From Candidatus Helarchaeota archaeon (GTDB taxonomy: Archaea; Asgardarchaeota; Lokiarchaeia; Helarchaeales; RDOG01): 49,481 bases of DNA. A model generated the notes under the pieces. It searched no databases. It worked only from the letters and a program-made list of their open reading frames with translations, and was not told where the DNA came from. The DNA lies in contig JALGVI010000033.1 in NCBI GenBank assembly GCA_029838215.1, forward strand, positions 1-49,481, read 5' to 3'. The first letter of the stretch is position 1; each line of letters opens with the position of its first letter. A program made the translations under genes and the position numbers. This document shows, piece by piece, positions 19,650-28,803 of the stretch.

Positions 19650-20228
19650 TCAAGTCAGGATGAGAAAGTTTTGGATCATTTTCATTCCATGGGGTCTTGT
19701 CAAAATGGATTCGGGATGAAATTGGACACCTTCAATTCTAAATTTTTCATGCCTGATTCCCATTATCGTCCCATCATCCGCTTTTGCAGTTACTTCTAAT
19801 TCTATTGGGACGGCTCGTGCGGCAAGACTATGATATCGCGTGGCAGGAAACGGATTGGGAATATCTCGAAATATTGTTTCACCGTCGTGATGAATCATTG
19901 ATATCATACCGTGAACGGGTCCAACACGTGCTCGTTCAATAGTGCCACCAAACGCTTCTACAATTGCTTGAAGTCCCAGACATACGCCAAGAATTGGAAT
20001 ATTTTGTTTCGTTCCAAACTCCTTAATTATTTCGAGACAATTACCCGTATCGGAAGCAGGATGTCCTGGACCAGGGCTAATTACGATTCTATCGGGATCT
20101 ATTTCTCGGACTTCTTTAATTGAAATGGAATTATCCACAACAATGGTCTTGCAGTCATTTTGCAAGAAATAATCGACGATTATATAGACGAATGAATCAT
20201 GGTTATTGATAAAAAGGACTTTATTCAT
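19650..20228 (-). CDS. trpG: Anthranilate synthase component II
   Basis: NNHDSF, ISPGPGHP, LGVCLG, RYHSL, QFHPES; ATG at 20228 after GGAGG overlaps the trpE stop. Confidence 0.93.
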   Translation of the reverse strand: MNKVLFINNHDSFVYIIVDYFLQNDCKTIVVDNSISIKEVREIDPDRIVISPGPGHPASDTGNCLEIIKEFGTKQNIPILGVCLGLQAIVEAFGGTIERARVGPVHGMISMIHHDGETIFRDIPNPFPATRYHSLAARAVPIELEVTAKADDGTIMGIRHEKFRIEGVQFHPESILTRPHGMKMIQNFLILT

Positions 20229-21718
20229 TGAAATGCCTCCGCCATTCGAATCGATAGTAAAATTGATCTCATCTTGTTTCTCGTCTCGATCCACTCCAAG
20301 CGAGGAATTGAATCCTTAACAATTCCCCCGCCAGCTTGAACCGTGAGTTCCTTGTTATTCATAAAGATTGTTCTAATGGCAATTGCAAAGTCCGCATCAC
20401 CATTCAGACTGAAATAGCCGACGACACCTCCGTATGGTCCGCGAGACTCCCTTTCAACTTCGTTAATGATTTCCATTGCTCTCAATTTTGGTGCACCTGA
20501 GACAGTTCCTGCTGGAAACATTGACCTGAGGATTTCAACGCTCGATATATCACGCCTTTGCGACTCTAGATGAGTCACTAGGTGCATCAGATGTTTATAT
20601 TTTCTCACGACCTTGAAGTCTTTCGCAATGACAGTCCCCGATTTTGAAACTTTTGCCAGATCATTTCTTGCCAAATCCACGAGCATCACGTGTTCAGCTT
20701 GTTCTTTTGGATCTTGCGTTAATTCCCGAACCATCTTTTCTTCTTCTTCGGGCGTTTTTCCGCGCCTTCGCGTGCCCGCGATTGGAACCGTTCGTACGTG
20801 TTCATTATCCATGCTAACTAAGGCTTCAGGAGAGCTACCAAGTATGCGAATGTCCTTGAAGTTCAAATAATACATGTATGGGCTGGGATTCAGGAGTCGT
20901 AATGCCCCATAGATATCCAAATCATCTGCAGAAGAACATATCTTGATTTTACGTGAAATAACCGCTTGAATGATATCACCAGAAAATATGTGTTCTCGTG
21001 TTTTCTCAATCATTTCAGAATATTTTTCAAACGGAACTGTAGATTTGTACTCTTCAGTTTCATTGAGTGATAGCTCGGGATATTTCTTCATTGGATGCCG
21101 ATGGTATTTCTTAATGCTCTTTATTAACTCAATTGGACGTTCGTAGCCATTTTCGCCTTCAAGAGTGTTATCAATGGAAAACAATTGTCCCGTCTTATGA
21201 TTGTAGATCAAGACTTTGGAATGCAATCCCAGTAAAACATCAGGATAGGATGATTTTGAATTGAATTTGACCCACGAAGCGACCGAGTCATAACCGATAT
21301 AGCCTAAATAGCCCCCATAGAACACGTTTCTTGGAAAAATCTCTCTAAATGCGTTCTTATTAAAAAACACGTATTTTTGGAGCTCATCGAATGCCTTCAT
21401 GTCATACTTGACTTGATCATTAAACGATCCATTGCTTTCGATGAAAGGTTTCGTCTCAGTAGAATTTATTTCTTCCAAAATTTTCTCGCCTCTTTCAGAA
21501 AGCACCGTGCGAATTTTTGATTTGCCGTTCTTGATTTCCAAAATAAAATCAGGTTCGAGGCAAATGAAACTATATAGAGTCTCCCGAGTCTCTTCTTGTA
21601 CTGATTCGAGCAGGAAGCTATATTCTACCTCTAAATCAGAAATGAGGTGGTTGAATAAGTTAAATATATCGTATTTCTGTCCAAGCAATTCTAAATGAAA
21701 ATTAAAATTCATTAACAT
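20225..21718 (-). CDS. trpE: Anthranilate synthase component I
   Basis: FLLES, NPSPYM, SSPE, PIAGTRRRG, EHVMLVDLARNDL, FPAGTVSGAPK, AGGGIV; ATG at 21718 after GGGAGG. Confidence 0.94.
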   Translation of the reverse strand: MLMNFNFHLELLGQKYDIFNLFNHLISDLEVEYSFLLESVQEETRETLYSFICLEPDFILEIKNGKSKIRTVLSERGEKILEEINSTETKPFIESNGSFNDQVKYDMKAFDELQKYVFFNKNAFREIFPRNVFYGGYLGYIGYDSVASWVKFNSKSSYPDVLLGLHSKVLIYNHKTGQLFSIDNTLEGENGYERPIELIKSIKKYHRHPMKKYPELSLNETEEYKSTVPFEKYSEMIEKTREHIFSGDIIQAVISRKIKICSSADDLDIYGALRLLNPSPYMYYLNFKDIRILGSSPEALVSMDNEHVRTVPIAGTRRRGKTPEEEEKMVRELTQDPKEQAEHVMLVDLARNDLAKVSKSGTVIAKDFKVVRKYKHLMHLVTHLESQRRDISSVEILRSMFPAGTVSGAPKLRAMEIINEVERESRGPYGGVVGYFSLNGDADFAIAIRTIFMNNKELTVQAGGGIVKDSIPRLEWIETRNKMRSILLSIRMAEAFQ

Positions 21719-22526
21719 GTCCTCCCATTTTCGTGGCATTTTTAAGTTTTCGTGTAAGATCTCCGATTTCACCAAGCATCTTATCGGGTTTCTTGAGATT
21801 TTCTTCAATTTTCTTTATTATGGCCGAGCCAACGATTACACCTGCCGCACCCGCTTTAATTAATTCCTTCACGTGCAACGGTGAACTGATCCCAAACCCG
21901 GGCATGATAGGTATTTCTGACATCGTCGTGAATCGCAACAAATTCTTTAACGTGGATGTTTCAACTTTCTTCCGAGCTCCTGTTGTCCCATAAGTAGAGA
22001 CAAAATATAGAAAACCCCTGGCGTTCTCAATTATTTTTGTGAGCCTTGTTTCGGATGTATTGGGAGCGATAAAAAGAATCAAATTAACGTTGTTTTTCAA
22101 GCATTCTTGGATAACAGGAGCAGCTTCTTCAATTGGCAAGTCAGGGATGACGATTCCCTGAACGTGGTTATCCTTGCAATTCTTGAAAAAAGCCTCAAGC
22201 GGATATTGAAGGACTATGTTGTAATATGTTAAAAATAAGATGGGGATCGATGAAAATTGGCGGATTTCTTTCACCATTGAGAATGCGATATCTGTATTCA
22301 TGCCCATTTCTAAGGCCCTTTGCGAGCTCATCTGAATTGTCTTTCCGTCTGCAATTGGATCTGAAAATGGAATTCCCAGTTCCATGAAATCAGCACCATT
22401 TTCAATCAACGTTTTGATGATTTCGATGCTCAAAGTTCTATTCGGATCTCCCAGCGTTACAAAAGGCATGAAAGCGCCTTCTTTATTTTTCTTTAATTGT
22501 TTGAATACCTCTGAGATTGTATTCAT
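21702..22526 (-). CDS. trpA: Tryptophan synthase alpha chain
   Basis: [43 protein letters not shown]. Confidence 0.95.
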
Positions 22527-23737
22527 ATATCAAAGCCTCCCAATCTCTCTTTGATAATCTGCAGGTCTTTTCCTCCTGCACCGGAAAGGTTTACCACAAC
22601 AATGTCGTCTTCTCGAAATTCTTGCACGGCGATCTTAAATAAATATGCTAATGCATGACTGGGTTCTAACGCAGGAATTATGCCTTCAGTTCGGGATAAT
22701 TCTAGAAATGCATTAAGTGCTTCAACATCCGTGACGGAACCAACCCGTAACCGTTTAATTTCTTTTAGAAATGCATGTTCAGGTCCTACTCCAGGGTAAT
22801 CCAATCCCGCACTAATACTATAACTTGTTTTTATCTGTCCGTATCTATCTTGCTGGAGATGTGTGTGCGCTCCGTGGAACACGCCCTTTGAATCATTACC
22901 GAGGCTTATTGCGTGTTTTTTTGTTTCTTTTCCTTTTCCTGCTGCTTCTACAGCGTGTAATTCAACAGAAACATCTTCAATAAATTCATAGAATGCTCCG
23001 ATAGCATTACTTCCTCCTCCAACGCAGGCAATGATTGCTGACGGAAGACGTCCTTCTTTTTCCATTATTTGAACTTTGATTTCCTTGCCAATTATTTTTT
23101 GAAATTCTCGCACGATGAGTGGATAAGGATGTGGTCCGACGACAGAGCCAATCAAATAATAGGTGGATGACAAGTTCGTAATCCAATCCCTGAGAGCTTC
23201 ATTAATGGCATCCTTTAGAGTTTTACTTCCAGAATCCACCGGTTTGATTTCAGCTCCTAGTAGTTTCATTCGAAATACGTTGTGTTTCTGTCGCTCTATG
23301 TCCTCCCTTCCCATGTAAACCTCAGTTTTCATCCCTAATAATGCTCCTGCGATGGCAGTTGCAAAACCGTGTTGTCCTGCACCAGTTTCCGCGATCAATC
23401 GTGTTTTTTTCATGTGCTTGCAAAGCAATGCCTGACCAAGAGTATTGTTGATCTTATGTGCACCACCATGAAGAAGGTCCTCTCGCTTCAGATAGACCTT
23501 GCATCCCAATTTCGTGCTCAAGTTTTTGGCAAAGTATAAGGGCGTGGGACGCCCTGCAAAATCTCGTAAGAGAAGTTTCAATTCAGCTTGGAATTCATTC
23601 GTATCTTTTATTTCGTTGAATGATTTTTCAAGCTCTTGAAGTGCAGGCATCAATATCTCTGGAACGAACTTGCCTCCGAAACGCCCATATTTGCCATTTT
23701 CATCGGGGTATTTCATTTTATAATCTTTAACTGACAT
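22523..23737 (-). CDS. trpB: Tryptophan synthase beta chain (TrpB1)
   Basis: [18 protein letters not shown] lysine, [28 protein letters not shown]. Confidence 0.96.
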
Positions 23738-23738
23738 T

Positions 23739-24410
23739 TTAAACCTCTCTGGAATTTTTTATGAATTCTTTAATTAAATCAATATCTTTCACGCCAGGAG
23801 CTGATTCCACGCCACTTGAAACGTCAACTGCAAACGGTTGAACTGTCTCGATTGCATTCCTAACATTTTCGGGCGTCAATCCTCCTGACAAGATTAATGG
23901 AACGTTAATCGATTCTCGGACTTTTTTTGCAATGGACCAATCATGAACGACTCCTGATCCGCCGATGGTCTTAGCCGAGTAGCTATCGATTAGAAGTGCA
24001 TCACAATATTTAGTCAATACTTGACTTGCAAATATTGGATCCTTATCAATCAAGCGCGAATTACCGCTTTCATCAATGGGCAATGCCAAAACCAATTTTG
24101 TCTTGATTATTCTGCGTAATTCTTTGAAAAAGGACTCTTTCTCCAGGGCATGAACTTGAAGAACATCAGGTCGGAGTTTTTCTTCCAAGGATAGTGCATC
24201 CACGATGGTTTCGGGAACGGTCACGCATACGTGAGAAATGAATGGTGGAATAGATCTGCGAATAGACAAGGCATGTTGAATAGAGATGCTCCGAGCAGAT
24301 CTGGGCACGTTTACTACCGTTCCTATGGCATCTACACCTTGATAAACGATTTGTTCTATGTGTTTTGAGTCCTTTAATCCGCATATTTTAATTTTAGTCA
24401 TTTTTAACAC
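23739..24410 (-). CDS. trpF: Phosphoribosylanthranilate isomerase
   Basis: [31 protein letters not shown]. Confidence 0.93.
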
Positions 24411-25176
24411 CTCTTAATTCTTGAATTGTTGAAGCAATCCGTGGAGACTGCATGATGTAAGTGCCTACTAGTACGGCATTAGCGCCTGCCGCTTGAACAC
24501 GCTCAACATCGGTCCGAGATTTAATACCGCTTTCACTAATGATCATGCAATTTGGGAATTCTTTTCTTAGAATAGGGGCAAGTTTTTCGGTATTTTTTAG
24601 ATCAATAGAAAAATTGGTTAAATTCCGGTTATTAATTCCCACGATTTTCAGATTAAATCCTCTAATTTTTTCGATATCAGTTTCATCGTGAATCTCAACC
24701 AGTGATTCGAGGTTTAATTTCTCATTTATTTTGAGAAAACGTGAGATCTCACCCTTATTTAGAACTGAAGCAATTAACAATACCATGTTAGCTCCAATAT
24801 CGGCGGCGAAATTTAGCTGGCTTTCATGAATGAAAAAATCTTTCATTAAAATTGGGAGATTCGTGACTTTTTTGATAGCAGGGATGAAGTCAGGAGATCC
24901 CTTGAAAAATTCCGGTTCGGTTAGTATGCTTAAACCAATTGCACCTCCCGTTTCCATCTCCTTAATGAGATCAATTATCGTGACATTTTCTCGAATATCA
25001 CCCATTGAAGGCGAAGCAAATTTCAATTCGGATATGATTGAAATGTTCTTGTTTCGTTTAATGGAATCATGGAACAGATTTTTTTCATTTGGAATGAATT
25101 TTGGTTGAGAATATTTTCGTTTAATATTGTTTATTGAAATAGACCTTTTTTGAACGATTTCATCTAAAATATTCAC
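24394..25176 (-). CDS. trpC: Indole-3-glycerol phosphate synthase
   Basis: ELKFASPS, SILTEPEFFKG, PILMKDF, GINNRNL, SESGI. Confidence 0.94.
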   Translation of the reverse strand: MNILDEIVQKRSISINNIKRKYSQPKFIPNEKNLFHDSIKRNKNISIISELKFASPSMGDIRENVTIIDLIKEMETGGAIGLSILTEPEFFKGSPDFIPAIKKVTNLPILMKDFFIHESQLNFAADIGANMVLLIASVLNKGEISRFLKINEKLNLESLVEIHDETDIEKIRGFNLKIVGINNRNLTNFSIDLKNTEKLAPILRKEFPNCMIISESGIKSRTDVERVQAAGANAVLVGTYIMQSPRIASTIQELRGVKND

Positions 25177-26237
25177 GTATTGTCCTCCAGTTTTTCGAAT
25201 ATTGTTTTATTTCCCCCCGAGGTCTCAACCAGATTTCTTAAGACCTCGTGTGGTTTTCCTGTATTAATAACATCTCTTGCAAGTTCGACACCATCCTTAA
25301 GAGCATCAACTTTACTTGCCACGTAAAGACCTGCTGCGGCATTCATTAACACGATATCCATTTTTGGAGATTTTTCTCCATTCAGGATGGATAAACTTAT
25401 TTGAATATTCTTTTCAACGGTTCCGCCTTTGATATCTCCAATGGTTGCTTTCGTGAGACCAAAATCCTCGACTTGAACTACGTAATTACGAACACCTCCA
25501 TTCTCAAGCTCAGACACAAACGTTCGTCCTATATTAGAAAATTCATCCAGACCGGGCATTCCATGAAATGTCAAGGCACGTTTGATTCCCAAAAGCTTCA
25601 AAGTTTGTGCTATTTTTTCGGTCAAATCCGGTGAATAAATTCCGACAATCTGAGCTTTGGCTTCTGCGGGATTGGTCAAGGGACCTAAGATATTGAAAAC
25701 TGTTCTAATTCCCAATTCTTTCCTGGGTCCTAACGCGTGTTTCATTGCGGGATGGAAGACGGGTGCAAACATGAAACCGATTCCAACTTTTTCGATGCAT
25801 TTTTTCACGATTTCTGGTTGGGCATTTATGTTGACTCCAAACCCTTCAAGTAAATCAGCACTCCCGCAAGTGCTGGTTATCGAACGATTTCCGTGTTTTG
25901 CAACACGAACGCCGGCCGCTGCCAGAACCAATGCTGATAGCGTACTGATGTTGAATGTTTTAATGGCATCCCCTCCCGTTCCACACGTATCGACCATGAT
26001 ATCATTTTTAGGAATTTCTGGAGAGACTTTCTTGCTAAATGCACGCATTACTTTAGCAAATGCCGCGATTTCACTCGGTTTTTCACCTTTCAATCGCAAT
26101 CCGGCTAAAAAAGCACCAATCTGAGCTGGTGTCGTCATACCACTCATGATTAATTCCATTGCCTTTGCTGCGGACCTATCATCCAAGTCCTTGTTCAAGG
26201 TTATTATTTTCAAGATCTTTTTCATTTCTTCAGACAA
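25173..26237 (-). CDS. trpD: Anthranilate phosphoribosyltransferase
   Basis: DTCGTGGD, FNIST, KHGNRS, GSADLLE, RTVFNILGPL; start placed at TTG 26237 after GAGGTG (ATG 26225 is the alternative). Confidence 0.94.
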   Translation of the reverse strand: MSEEMKKILKIITLNKDLDDRSAAKAMELIMSGMTTPAQIGAFLAGLRLKGEKPSEIAAFAKVMRAFSKKVSPEIPKNDIMVDTCGTGGDAIKTFNISTLSALVLAAAGVRVAKHGNRSITSTCGSADLLEGFGVNINAQPEIVKKCIEKVGIGFMFAPVFHPAMKHALGPRKELGIRTVFNILGPLTNPAEAKAQIVGIYSPDLTEKIAQTLKLLGIKRALTFHGMPGLDEFSNIGRTFVSELENGGVRNYVVQVEDFGLTKATIGDIKGGTVEKNIQISLSILNGEKSPKMDIVLMNAAAGLYVASKVDALKDGVELARDVINTGKPHEVLRNLVETSGGNKTIFEKLEDNT

Positions 26238-26314
26238 AATTATCACCTCATTTGAATTTTTAAAATAAATAAAAGAAAAATAAAAAGACGTGAATTGACC
26301 AGTGCAAGATACGC

Positions 26315-26461
26315 TTAATTGCGCCAGCACCAAGGCCACTCAAGACTAATTAGAAAAAAAGGAACATTAAGACTGTTACGGGGAACAATCTCACAAAAAT
26401 TTGTTTGAAAATCCAAAATTAAATCGCTTGACTCGAAAAATAAATCTTGACCTGCATCCAT
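26315..26461 (-). promoter_or_regulatory. Putative Trp-rich leader ORF of the trp operon
   Basis: Hand translation: MDAGQDLFFESSDLILDFQTNFCEIVPRNSLNVPFFLISLEWPWCWRN*; TGG-CCT-TGG-TGC-TGG at 26338..26324, followed by a U-tract at 26286..26262. Confidence 0.6.
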
Positions 26462-26878
26462 CTCTACAAGAAGTTCTCCATTGTAGGAAATTAATTCCAG
26501 TCCAAGTGTCAGGCCTCGATAACATTTTTTCGGTTTTATAAAGTCTAAATCAAGATGGTATATTTAAATTTCTAGGCAATTTTAAATTTTGAAATACTTG
26601 AAAGTCAGAAGTTGGATTTTAAATCAGAACCTGAAGATCTTGGAGAATGAAATCAAATCAATAGAGAAAAAGGACTTTACTAAGGTTTCCATATCATGAA
26701 TGATGAATAAAAGGATTCTCAGTGCATTTTAAGCTTGAAGTATGAGATCGTAAATTTTTTTGCATCCATTCGGGTCTTCAGTTTCTAGAATTCCGAGAAT
26801 TTAAACCTGAAGATTTATATCCTAATGAATTTTATAAATTTGATAGATCATATTAAACTTGGGGATTTAATCAAACAA

Positions 26879-26918
26879 AGTAGACTAATGCGGGACACGT
26901 AGGGGGACCACGTCTACT
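26879..26918. other. GC-rich stem-loop in AT-rich intergenic DNA
   Basis: AGTAGAC (26879-26885) / GTCTACT (26912-26918) inverted repeat with T-rich sequence downstream on both strands. Confidence 0.4.
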
Positions 26919-27054
26919 CTTTTTAATAAATTTTAAGACTCGTGAGAAAAACCAGTAAATCAAGATGGAATGGAATTTTTATCGAATTAATTCATCATGT
27001 TATTGAATTAAAATTGCCCAGATTTTAAAAAAGAAGGAATTTAAAGAAATTTTG

Positions 27055-28803
27055 TTAAGAGATCATCGGCAGACCAAATGGAAAGAAATTGATCATCATC
27101 CAAGCATAAAAAATGCTCAGAAACATGGTTGATCCGAGAATATTCCGTCCTGAATACATGTAAATCCAAGTTACCAAGATCTGCTGGATTATTGAAAAAA
27201 TCATGACCACCGTCAGAGTTAGTGCCAAAAATCCAATTAAAGGACCTTTTGCCCAAGTTAGGATAGTTAATGGAATGATCAGTGCATTATCCACTAAAAT
27301 TCCAATGCCTACCATCGAGAAATATTCCTTGAATCGGTTTTTGTATTTCAGCTGTCCTTGAATGGACCTTAAACAAAACTCCTTTATAAAAAGCCACGGA
27401 AACATCATGATAACTAATCCAAAAATCGTTCCAATTTCTCGTGTCGTTGGGACTGTAGTGATTGTACTCCATGTCGTTATTGCTGTTATTGAGAACGTGA
27501 ATATTAATGCGGCACCCACACCAAAGAGCATTGCTCGTCCATAATTCTCCGTACATAGTTCTTTCATCTTTGTTGGGATTTCCGAGAATCCGAGTGATTC
27601 ATTCTTTCGGTTTACGAGATAATAACCGAGAATCCCACCGAGAGCAACAGCAATTAGCTGGGCATACAAAAATTGACCCATAGAAATCGTTAAGACCGTG
27701 GATAAAAGAATGCTAAGCGGCAAAAAGAGTCCTGCAAATCCTATTGTTGTGCCGAGAATATAATAGACTACCATTTTCAGAGCAGATGCATCTTGTACCA
27801 AATTTTTTTGGTCATTCCAATCTTGATTCTTCCAAATCTGATCCCGAAGGTAAAGAATTAGCACGAAACAAAAAGCAATTACTCCCATAAGTGTGATGGC
27901 AAATGAAAGAATGTTGAGAGTCGATGTGAGAATTATCGGACTTGAAATGGTACCATTAAAGGCGAGTTCAAACCAAATTACTGTTTCATGGATAATAAGT
28001 AAGTCAAGTGGTTCAAATAAGTGCTCTGTCCCTCCAGCAATGGCTTTACAAGCATTTCCTGCGGCAAAGCTCCCATATTGTTGCCAAAGACTAACCTGAG
28101 TGAGATTTGTATATTGTCGCAAGAAATTCAAAGAGATATCGACCGAAAACATTTGTTCAAATAATCCATTTGCGATCAAGAGATTTGAGACGCGAGAGAG
28201 ATTCACTTCTGCGGTTTCGGCTCCTGCCAAAGCCCCCCGTATGCCCGAGCTAAAATCACGAGACATTCCTAAGACAACGGTGGCATTTATCAGATTCGTA
28301 TAGTCATCGGCTGTTGTTAGAACAGTCATCGCACCCATTGAATGACCTAGCAAGCCTATTTTATCAATATTCCCAAGAGATTGGAGATATTGGACTGCTG
28401 CCATTATATCATTCTCAATTGTCTGGACCATGTTGGGATCCATGAATGACGGAAGAAATCCTCCAGAACTGCCGTGACCTCTAAATTCGATATTTACGAC
28501 CACGAAACCACGTTTGACCAATTCAATGGCAATCAATTGCATGTGATGAGCATTTTCAGTGAATCCGTGTCCAATAACAACACCCGGGCGATTACCAGTA
28601 GCAGTCAACGGATTATACACGTATGTCATTATCGGAACATCATCTTCAGTCAACAGGATTACCGGCGTGATGGTATATGAATGAGTCGGATCGGGGCAGA
28701 AGTTAAAAATAATCAAAGGAATAAGTCCAGTAACGATCACGATAGCAGATAGCAGAAGTCCTGTCCTTTTTTTATTCGATGACAAGAATTTTCTAACATC
28801 CAT
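27055..28803 (-). CDS. Alpha/beta hydrolase with N-terminal TM and multi-pass C-terminal membrane domain
   Basis: VIGHGF, FRGHGSSG, GHSMG nucleophile elbow, TEHLFE; many C-terminal hydrophobic helices. Confidence 0.85.
   Translation of the reverse strand: MDVRKFLSSNKKRTGLLLSAIVIVTGLIPLIIFNFCPDPTHSYTITPVILLTEDDVPIMTYVYNPLTATGNRPGVVIGHGFTENAHHMQLIAIELVKRGFVVVNIEFRGHGSSGGFLPSFMDPNMVQTIENDIMAAVQYLQSLGNIDKIGLLGHSMGAMTVLTTADDYTNLINATVVLGMSRDFSSGIRGALAGAETAEVNLSRVSNLLIANGLFEQMFSVDISLNFLRQYTNLTQVSLWQQYGSFAAGNACKAIAGGTEHLFEPLDLLIIHETVIWFELAFNGTISSPIILTSTLNILSFAITLMGVIAFCFVLILYLRDQIWKNQDWNDQKNLVQDASALKMVVYYILGTTIGFAGLFLPLSILLSTVLTISMGQFLYAQLIAVALGGILGYYLVNRKNESLGFSEIPTKMKELCTENYGRAMLFGVGAALIFTFSITAITTWSTITTVPTTREIGTIFGLVIMMFPWLFIKEFCLRSIQGQLKYKNRFKEYFSMVGIGILVDNALIIPLTILTWAKGPLIGFLALTLTVVMIFSIIQQILVTWIYMYSGRNILGSTMFLSIFYAWMMINFFPFGLPMIS

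Follow-up and report, generated by a model that had tools for sequence, protein, structure and literature searches.

Can an archaeon gauge its tryptophan supply through a ribosome that translates a leader ahead of the trp genes? The question is raised by a locus of Candidatus Helarchaeota archaeon, an Asgard archaeon, in which an open reading frame (ORF) ending in a cluster of Trp codons lies, together with a U-rich tract, just upstream of a seven-gene trp operon. The stretch of DNA analysed, hereafter the window, is contig JALGVI010000033.1 (49,481 nucleotides (nt), assembly GCA_029838215.1). Archaea have been described as being without any known attenuation or antitermination mechanism (PMC8448881), TrpY and Tar are the known archaeal trp regulators, little being known beyond TrpY (PMC6737238, published in 2019), and a literature search found no paper on Trp-codon leaders in archaea. 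A first-pass annotation of the window had proposed a candidate translation-coupled attenuator at this place. We report that its Trp codons and U-tract are kept in relatives, in most of which a stem-loop at the stop is predicted as well, whereas three side proposals of that annotation (a 17-residue peptide made by slippage, an additional upstream ORF and a TrpL-like size) did not hold. The explanation we favour, with a probability of roughly 55%, is that a Trp-sensing leader ORF controls trpDCFBAEG in cis by hairpin-gated transcription termination.

A reading frame ending in Trp codons precedes the trp operon

NCBIfam equivalogs were found for all seven genes of the operon, in agreement with the order trpDCFBAEG read at first. 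The operon and the elements upstream of it are as follows.

19650-26237, minus strand: trpD-trpC-trpF-trpB-trpA-trpE-trpG operon (equivalog matches for 7/7, in this order); trpD at 25173-26237 with a TTG start
26242-26249, minus strand: Shine-Dalgarno (SD) sequence of trpD, GAGGTGAT; relatives keep (G/T)AGGTGAT
26262-26286, minus strand: oligo-T tract T5AT5CT4AT3AT4, 21 of its 25 nt being T; candidate signal for archaeal termination
26291-26342, minus strand: interrupted hairpin of 18 base pairs (bp), with the three Trp codons in its 5' arm, the stop codon in its loop (AAUUAA) and 4 nt between the end of its 3' arm and the T-tract
26324-26338, minus strand: Trp-codon cluster UGG CCU UGG UGC UGG (W-P-W-C-W), with TGG at 26338-26336, 26332-26330 and 26326-26324, three in five codons
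26315-26461, minus strand: 48-codon ORF from the first in-frame ATG, which aligns with a conserved internal Met of relatives (position 18)
26315-26512, minus strand: conserved leader frame of 65 codons, from CTG 26512 to TAA 26317-26315, peptide (L)TLGLELISYNGELLVEMDAGQ...PFFLISLEWPWCWRN; the CTG occupies the site of the relatives' ATG/TTG start
26491-26506, minus strand: block 1, CTTGGACTGGAATTAA (codons L-G-L-E-L), the 5' leader block, (nearly) invariant across the 13 leaders compared below

The minus-strand ORF running from ATG 26461 to TAA 26315 encodes 48 amino acids (aa) and ends in SLEWPWCWRN. Its last codons are CTT GAG TGG CCT TGG TGC TGG CGC AAT TAA, which gives three Trp among the final 8 codons, and a spacer of 28 nt (26314-26287) separates the stop from the T-tract. 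The frame that carries the Trp codons is free of stops across 82 codons, including a run of seven U (U7), and reads TLGLELISYNGELLVEMDAGQ...EWPWCWRN. All coordinates of the first-pass annotation proved correct: the ORF at 26461-26315, the three UGG in five codons, the 28-nt spacer, the tract at 26286..26262 and a TTTATAAA box at 26542..26535, as well as a second ATG at 26367 (reading MFLFF and a stop), the T7 run at 26360-26354 and an overlapping ORF (26525..26391) with two Trp.

The same arrangement stands before a second trp locus

Outside long ORFs, 836 kb of the 3.6-Mb genome contained only seven ORF tails with at least three Trp in the last 8 codons. The two strongest of these seven lie upstream of the two trp loci, namely trpD in the window and trpB2 on another contig (C130). 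Such a tail is expected by chance about 0.0025 times per 600-nt upstream region, and these sequence statistics indicate that the Trp-codon leader arrangement is not a product of chance.

The second leader (C130, ~27700-27395; locus L111:1896-2200, minus strand) ends in LFWRWQWCWRWQ and a stop, 89 nt 5' of a stand-alone trpB2. It contains a 34-codon ORF from an ATG (MSNVKKIRVGFFSSLATTLEDSLFWRWQWCWRWQ) and block 1 as in the window, and a hairpin of -21.6 kcal/mol is predicted across its last Trp codons and stop, followed by a small hairpin and U5. A GC-rich internal hairpin, GGACACCG/CGGUGUCU, was also seen in this leader. Exact matches to the 15-mer TTGGACTGGRATTAA / TTGGACTGG(A/G)ATTAA occur in the genome only at the two trp leaders; other near-matches to block 1 in Helarchaeales fall inside unrelated coding genes, for example in GIGLGL motifs.

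A crude genome scan for ORF tails rich in His, Cys, Met, Thr, Val and similar residues before biosynthetic genes gave nothing convincing. One ORF tail, PPPLVLPPDEK(H/Y), was found at five sites (C28:161, C49:90, C96:9274, C103:137 and C154:18918), several of them near contig ends, and is probably a repeated element.

The leader frame is conserved in Helarchaeales-type relatives

When Joint Genome Institute metagenomes were scanned with TrpD, no relative above 55% identity was recovered, and closer ones came from protein database contigs. The nearest named TrpD relatives (61-67% identity) belong to Helarchaeota, Promethearchaeota and Lokiarchaeota metagenome-assembled genomes; in the genome set compared, TrpD of species-level relatives is only 47-59% identical. 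The contigs of ten relatives' TrpD proteins were fetched, nine of which contained the whole leader region. The comparison therefore covers 13 leaders: those of these nine relatives (TrpD 56-67% identical), the window, the trpB2 leader of the same genome, and the trpD and trpB2 leaders of G001, the only other species of the window's family.

Seven of the nine fetched loci open with aaaGGAAGC-ATG-ACA-CTT-GGA-CTG-GAA-TTA-AC; L237 has GGAAGA-TTG and L236 GGATGCG-ATG. The relatives' leader frame runs for 52-65 codons into the Trp cluster and the stop, as in MTLGLELTSFNGEHSARMFRLIF...LFSRSWPWRGWRR, and the window frame aligns with their MTLGLELTSFNGEHSARMFRL...SRxWxWRGWRR. Since the relatives' ORF starts just ahead of the shared 15-mer, block 1 is the beginning of a long leader ORF. 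Between block 1 and the Trp cluster, 13/13 leaders keep the frame open over 50-63 codons, with no stop in 734 codons, as against 66 and 53 stops in the other two frames. The in-frame TGG codons, 39 in total, are all confined to the last 10 codons, and the stop follows one to three codons later. The first-pass annotation had suggested aligning the upstream regions of trpD in related genomes; in these 13 leaders both the Trp cluster and the U-tract are conserved.

Conservation is lacking in the middle of the peptide, which also varies in length; the constant parts are the 5' block (N-terminal TLGLELT is kept), the open frame and the terminal Trp cluster. A Pfam search with three leader peptides returned no family. 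An open frame with a variable peptide is, as a sequence pattern, the signature of a frame that needs to be translated up to its Trp codons, not of a protein with a function of its own. Genuine small proteins may be encoded by ORFs of 48-65 codons, and the conserved TLGLELT might belong to one. We nevertheless consider it very improbable that the leader is simply a small-protein gene transcribed together with the trp genes, or that the arrangement arose by chance in AT-rich DNA: the mid-peptide is unconserved and its length variable, no Pfam family matches, the ORF recurs upstream of two trp loci and in more than one Asgard order, and only ~0.0025 such tails would be expected by chance per 600-nt region.

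It had also been proposed that the real leader is a 17-aa, TrpL-sized peptide, MFLFFLISLEWPWCWRN, initiated at ATG 26367 and reached through an extra U in U7 (a homopolymer assembly error) or a -1 slip there. The sequence U UUU UUC followed by UAA would be a plausible slippery site, and the G001 trpD leader (L003), whose Trp frame is without any ATG, GTG or TTG, also has a T6 run. The Trp frame is however already open over U7 and colinear, from block 1 to the stop, with the relatives' 52-65-codon leaders, so that one base more or less would break it, and ATG 26367 has no counterpart in relatives, in which T5-T7 runs at this place encode Phe before the Trp cluster. We find the 17-aa peptide hardly credible, and, since the Trp frame crosses U7 in register with all relatives, we would argue that U7 is correctly assembled. 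The TrpL-like size was not borne out either, the Helarchaeales leader being a long ORF with a conserved 5' block. As for the 44-aa upstream ORF (26525..26391) put forward for its two Trp, its frame (W-T-G-I-N-F-L) shows apparent third-position changes, but a canonical start is found in only 2/13 leaders; it is not conserved as an ORF, and its two Trp are by-products of nucleotide blocks belonging to the main leader frame. A mini-ORF in block 1, TTG-GAC-TGG-AAT-TAA (MDWN), prompted by ATGGACTGGGCATAA in G004, was dropped as well, the long frame having an ATG two codons upstream.

Block 1 is more conserved in its nucleotides than the peptide would require (GGA and CTG, a rare Leu codon, are invariant in 12-13 of the 13 leaders), and it is common to both trp loci, as an operator would be. 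The UGG-N3-UGG-N3-UGG arrangement, for its part, resembles the spaced triplets bound by TRAP of Bacillus subtilis. The UGG repeats, block 1 or both might accordingly be bound by a trans-acting factor (a TRAP-type protein, a TrpY-type repressor or tRNA-Trp) with no role for stalling, and known archaeal trp control does consist of proteins, TrpY and Tar (PMC6737238). An open reading frame is not required of a binding site, but 13/13 leaders have one, with TGG always in frame and at most 10 codons from the stop, and the spacing of the Trp codons varies (WxWxW, WWW, WxWxxW) yet stays in phase; we judge this explanation improbable. A factor at block 1 acting together with ribosomal sensing may be envisaged by analogy, and would resemble E. 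coli TrpR plus trpL.

The trp leader of two relatives is immediately preceded, on its own strand, by a 162-aa MarR/HTH-family gene (L235:686-1174 and L236:660-1148), a candidate protein regulator of the trp operon; the window has an unrelated 582-aa membrane alpha/beta-hydrolase at this position. In two genomes of family f3 of the same order, whose trp operons begin with trpE, no convincing leader was found 5' of trpE.

The 5' part of the leader

A canonical start codon stands 2-3 codons ahead of block 1 in 10/13 leaders. At this position the window has CTG (26512-26510), likewise the G001 trpD leader, and the trpB2 leader of the window's own genome has no start codon there. The presence of CTG in both trpD leaders of the family points either to CUG initiation, to a downstream start or to assembly errors. 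Three further features of the window bear on this region.

26535-26542, minus strand: TATA-like box TTTATAAA, 22 nt 5' of CTG 26512, read directly
26561-26568, minus strand: TATA-like box TTTAAATA, followed by TA, 48 nt 5' of the conserved start position, read directly
26368-26393, minus strand: hairpin GAGAUUGUU..AACAGUCUU within the leader ORF, 10 bp, predicted in every constrained fold; the U7 run (26360-26354) starts 7 nt on

In relatives, a TTTATATA/TTTAAATA box lies ~35-38 nt 5' of the leader ATG. If the TTTATAAA box is the promoter of the window leader, transcription would start at ~26512 and translation would proceed from ATG 26461. The internal hairpin and U7 might form a site at which the polymerase pauses or partly terminates, giving the ribosome time to catch up, which is only a guess.

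In one group of relatives (L231 (1255-1345), L232, L235, L236, L237 and L239), block 1 and the start codon are predicted to pair with UCCAAGUG(CAU) ~66 nt downstream over 9-10 bp (z down to -5.4), so that the leader initiation region is structured there. Both strands of this helix are changed in L236, and it encloses an internal hairpin, GAACAU/AUGUUC, containing the second in-frame AUG. The long-range helix between block 1 and downstream UCCAAGUG was rejected as a feature of the window: z was -2.9 to -5.4 in L231, L232, L236 and L239 and not significant in the window or its family.

Upstream of the leader promoter region, ~500 nt (26560-27054) extending to the next gene (stop 27055) hold short ORFs only and gave no Rfam match. 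On the other side, the trpD frame is open for 34 codons 5' of its TTG start (to GTG 26339), through the T-tract and the Trp codons in another frame, and ORF lists therefore show a 388-aa trpD. The database protein entry begins at GTG 26246 (357 aa); homologues align from the region of TTG 26237.

A hairpin over the stop codon and an oligo-T tract downstream of it

The predicted hairpin at 26342-26291 has a free energy of -20.0 kcal/mol (z -2.3 against dinucleotide shuffles, 4 of 200 shuffles being equally stable). The GGUGC/GCACU pairing around GCGC/GCGU noticed at first is present as the inner part of this larger structure. In constrained folds, the hairpin no longer forms once a 28-nt ribosome footprint covers any one of the three Trp codons, which is the outcome of the masking check that the first-pass annotation had suggested. 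Its outer part, a GGC(N)UUG : CAA(N)GCC helix whose 3' arm abuts the first long T run, is shared by 7 aligned leaders. For most leaders a stem-loop is predicted that has the stop at its apex or close to it; in several of them the 5' arm includes the last Trp codon or the next one or two codons.

Clusters of T4-T10 runs lie 3' of the leader stop, between +7 and +56, in 13/13 leaders. Genome-wide, 25-nt windows with at least 20 T were found upstream of 11 of 3033 crude gene calls (0.36%) and downstream of 56 of 3113 (1.8%); being fivefold commoner after genes than before, such a tract is a signal typical of 3' ends that here stands in a 5' leader. Archaeal RNA polymerases need no hairpin to terminate at oligo-T. 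In the whole genome, T-tracts (at least 10 T in 12) follow 571 of ~3100 crude gene calls, with little structure in the 45 nt ahead of them (mean -4.3 kcal/mol, z -0.33 vs -0.15 for controls), as would fit oligo-T termination independent of hairpins in this archaeon. The leader reaches -11.2 when measured in the same way over 45 nt, close to the eight most stable of the 571 (-15.3 to -11.9). Compared with the mean of -4.3, the leader hairpin is therefore special, and not a generic part of terminators in this organism.

These data also bear on the possibility that the ribosomal Trp sensor is the same but has another output, namely trpD translation initiation or mRNA stability or processing, with the T-tract an AT-rich spacer or a constitutive partial terminator. 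As archaeal U-tract termination needs no hairpin and ordinary terminators here go without one, hairpin gating is unexpected. Moreover, unconstrained folds pair the U-tract and SD region weakly with A-rich trpD codons, in a way that changes as the footprint moves, and some Lokiarchaeales-type leaders lie ~420 nt from trpD with an ORF of ~80 codons in between. The SD pairings are however weak A-U/G-U helices without comparative support, 53-121 nt from stop to start is a long distance for coupling by termination and reinitiation, and the dense T-tract cluster that follows the stop in 13/13 leaders is rare in 5' regions. A different output appears rather unlikely to us, and hairpin-gated termination is the reading that we retain.

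Trp leaders in other Asgard lineages

In a sister family (Lokiarchaeales-type), Trp leaders of 16-23 codons precede trpD or trpB2, for example MATENNCFWSWQWPWRWQ and MFRKNLNLKVPSSTWFWVWCWHA. Tails with at least three Trp were present at 20/30 trpB2 loci. Contigs of Sifarchaeum, Hodarchaeota and Wukongarchaeum carry Trp-tail ORFs 97-119 nt 5' of trpD. None of the non-Asgard loci among 80 fetched had a Trp-tail ORF within 150 nt of trpD. In three sister-family loci (L005, L007 and L010), an ORF of ~80 codons with a conserved ..IIFGPEKSKTAKFI.. motif was seen between the short Trp leader and trpD.

The window leader shares the traits of the Asgard type, a Trp-cluster ORF tail and a hairpin over the stop upstream of trpD or trpB2. 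The short leaders (loci L005-L011 and L118-L141) likewise have a terminal WxWxW-type cluster, a stop at the hairpin apex, U-tracts and the same target genes. They differ in length, the Helarchaeales-type leader being 3-4 times longer, and are without the 5' block (GGAAGC-ATG-ACA-CTTGGACTGGAATTAAC) and internal hairpin of the latter. What is new here is the long Helarchaeales form of the leader, with its conserved 5' block and a CTG at the start position.

Discussion

Taken together, these observations suggest the following mechanism, based on sequence comparison and predicted folds. A ribosome would translate the leader from ATG 26461 or from the conserved start position (CTG 26512). With ample charged tRNA-Trp, it would pass UGG-CCU-UGG-UGC-UGG, reach the stop and leave, and the freed RNA would fold into the 26342-26291 hairpin behind a polymerase located in the U-tract, favouring termination, either intrinsic or with FttA/aCPSF1. 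With scarce tRNA-Trp, a ribosome stalled on UGG would cover the 5' arm, no hairpin would form, and the polymerase would read through into trpD. Such a one-hairpin attenuator appears to be the most economical model, and the sign of the regulation would fit only if the hairpin favours termination.

Several observations weigh against this model. The translated length of the leader is uncertain, given the CTG at the start position in the window and the missing start in the trpB2 copy of the same genome. The hairpin alignment shows no compensatory changes, because its 5' arm consists of constrained UGG codons; for most relatives the local fold does not exceed shuffled sequence in stability (z -1.6 to +0.7), the window being the exception, and the fold of the whole leader is not unusually stable (z -0.34 vs shuffles). 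No mutually exclusive 2:3 antiterminator was found, footprinted folds giving no consistent alternative helix and alignments showing none, and a simple hairpin-plus-T scan based on the bacterial consensus reported no terminator at the leader, archaeal termination rules being different. Finally, with hairpin-free archaeal termination and ordinary terminators that look hairpin-free in this organism, an effect of hairpin occlusion on termination is hard to explain. It is because U-tract termination needs no hairpin, no antiterminator helix was found and the bacterial-consensus scan was negative that we hold our confidence at the level given above.

A broader proposal, to which we give about even odds, is that Asgard archaea use ribosome-mediated attenuation, in which a stalled ribosome occludes a hairpin gating a U-tract terminator, and that the Helarchaeales 5' block and internal hairpin constitute a second control point (a pause, an operator or CUG initiation). 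If true, attenuation would for the first time be documented in Archaea, and there would be direct evidence for a regulatory use of transcription-translation coupling in this domain, the coupling between archaeal ribosome and RNA polymerase being close enough to carry regulatory information. The conserved Trp leader at two trp loci would provide a first concrete, testable case of such archaeal control, and would raise the question of how a hairpin can modulate a hairpin-independent terminator. As Asgard archaea are the closest prokaryotic relatives of eukaryotes, it bears on the control logics available to the lineage that yielded eukaryotes. Being small and modular, the element is also a potential Trp-responsive switch for archaeal genetics.

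The closest parallel is the enterobacterial trpL leader, with which the window shares an upstream ORF with Trp codons near its stop, RNA structure in the codon region and a U-rich tract before the first gene; the logic, too, would be that of trpL, the position of the ribosome reporting charged tRNA-Trp. The differences are that the window ORF has 48-65 codons instead of 14, that there is a single hairpin with the stop in its loop, no 2:3 antiterminator having been found, that termination in the archaeal host takes place at oligo-T, with FttA in use instead of Rho, and that the element also precedes a stand-alone trpB2. Rfam cmscan of 25800-27300 on both strands (E at most 1) returned no family, including RF00513 (Trp_leader); judged by this search, the leader, which would work like trpL, is not a member of the trpL RNA family.

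In having one hairpin, and in that a ribosome on its 5' arm rather than an alternative helix would decide termination, the proposed mechanism is analogous to the E. coli pyrBI leader. The latter senses uridine triphosphate (UTP) via polymerase pausing, and a closely following ribosome gives read-through, whereas the signal here would be a ribosome stalled on Trp codons. The TRAP site of B. subtilis, made of (G/U)AG repeats, is likewise a series of spaced triplets in a trp leader overlapping a terminator/antiterminator decision; in the window, by contrast, the repeats are UGG, always in frame in a conserved ORF, near its stop and variably spaced. The same pathway is regulated within Archaea by TrpY of Methanothermobacter and Tar/TK0271 of Thermococcus. 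These are DNA-binding proteins that act at promoters (PMC6737238), unlike the element described here, which consists of a reading frame and its Trp codons.

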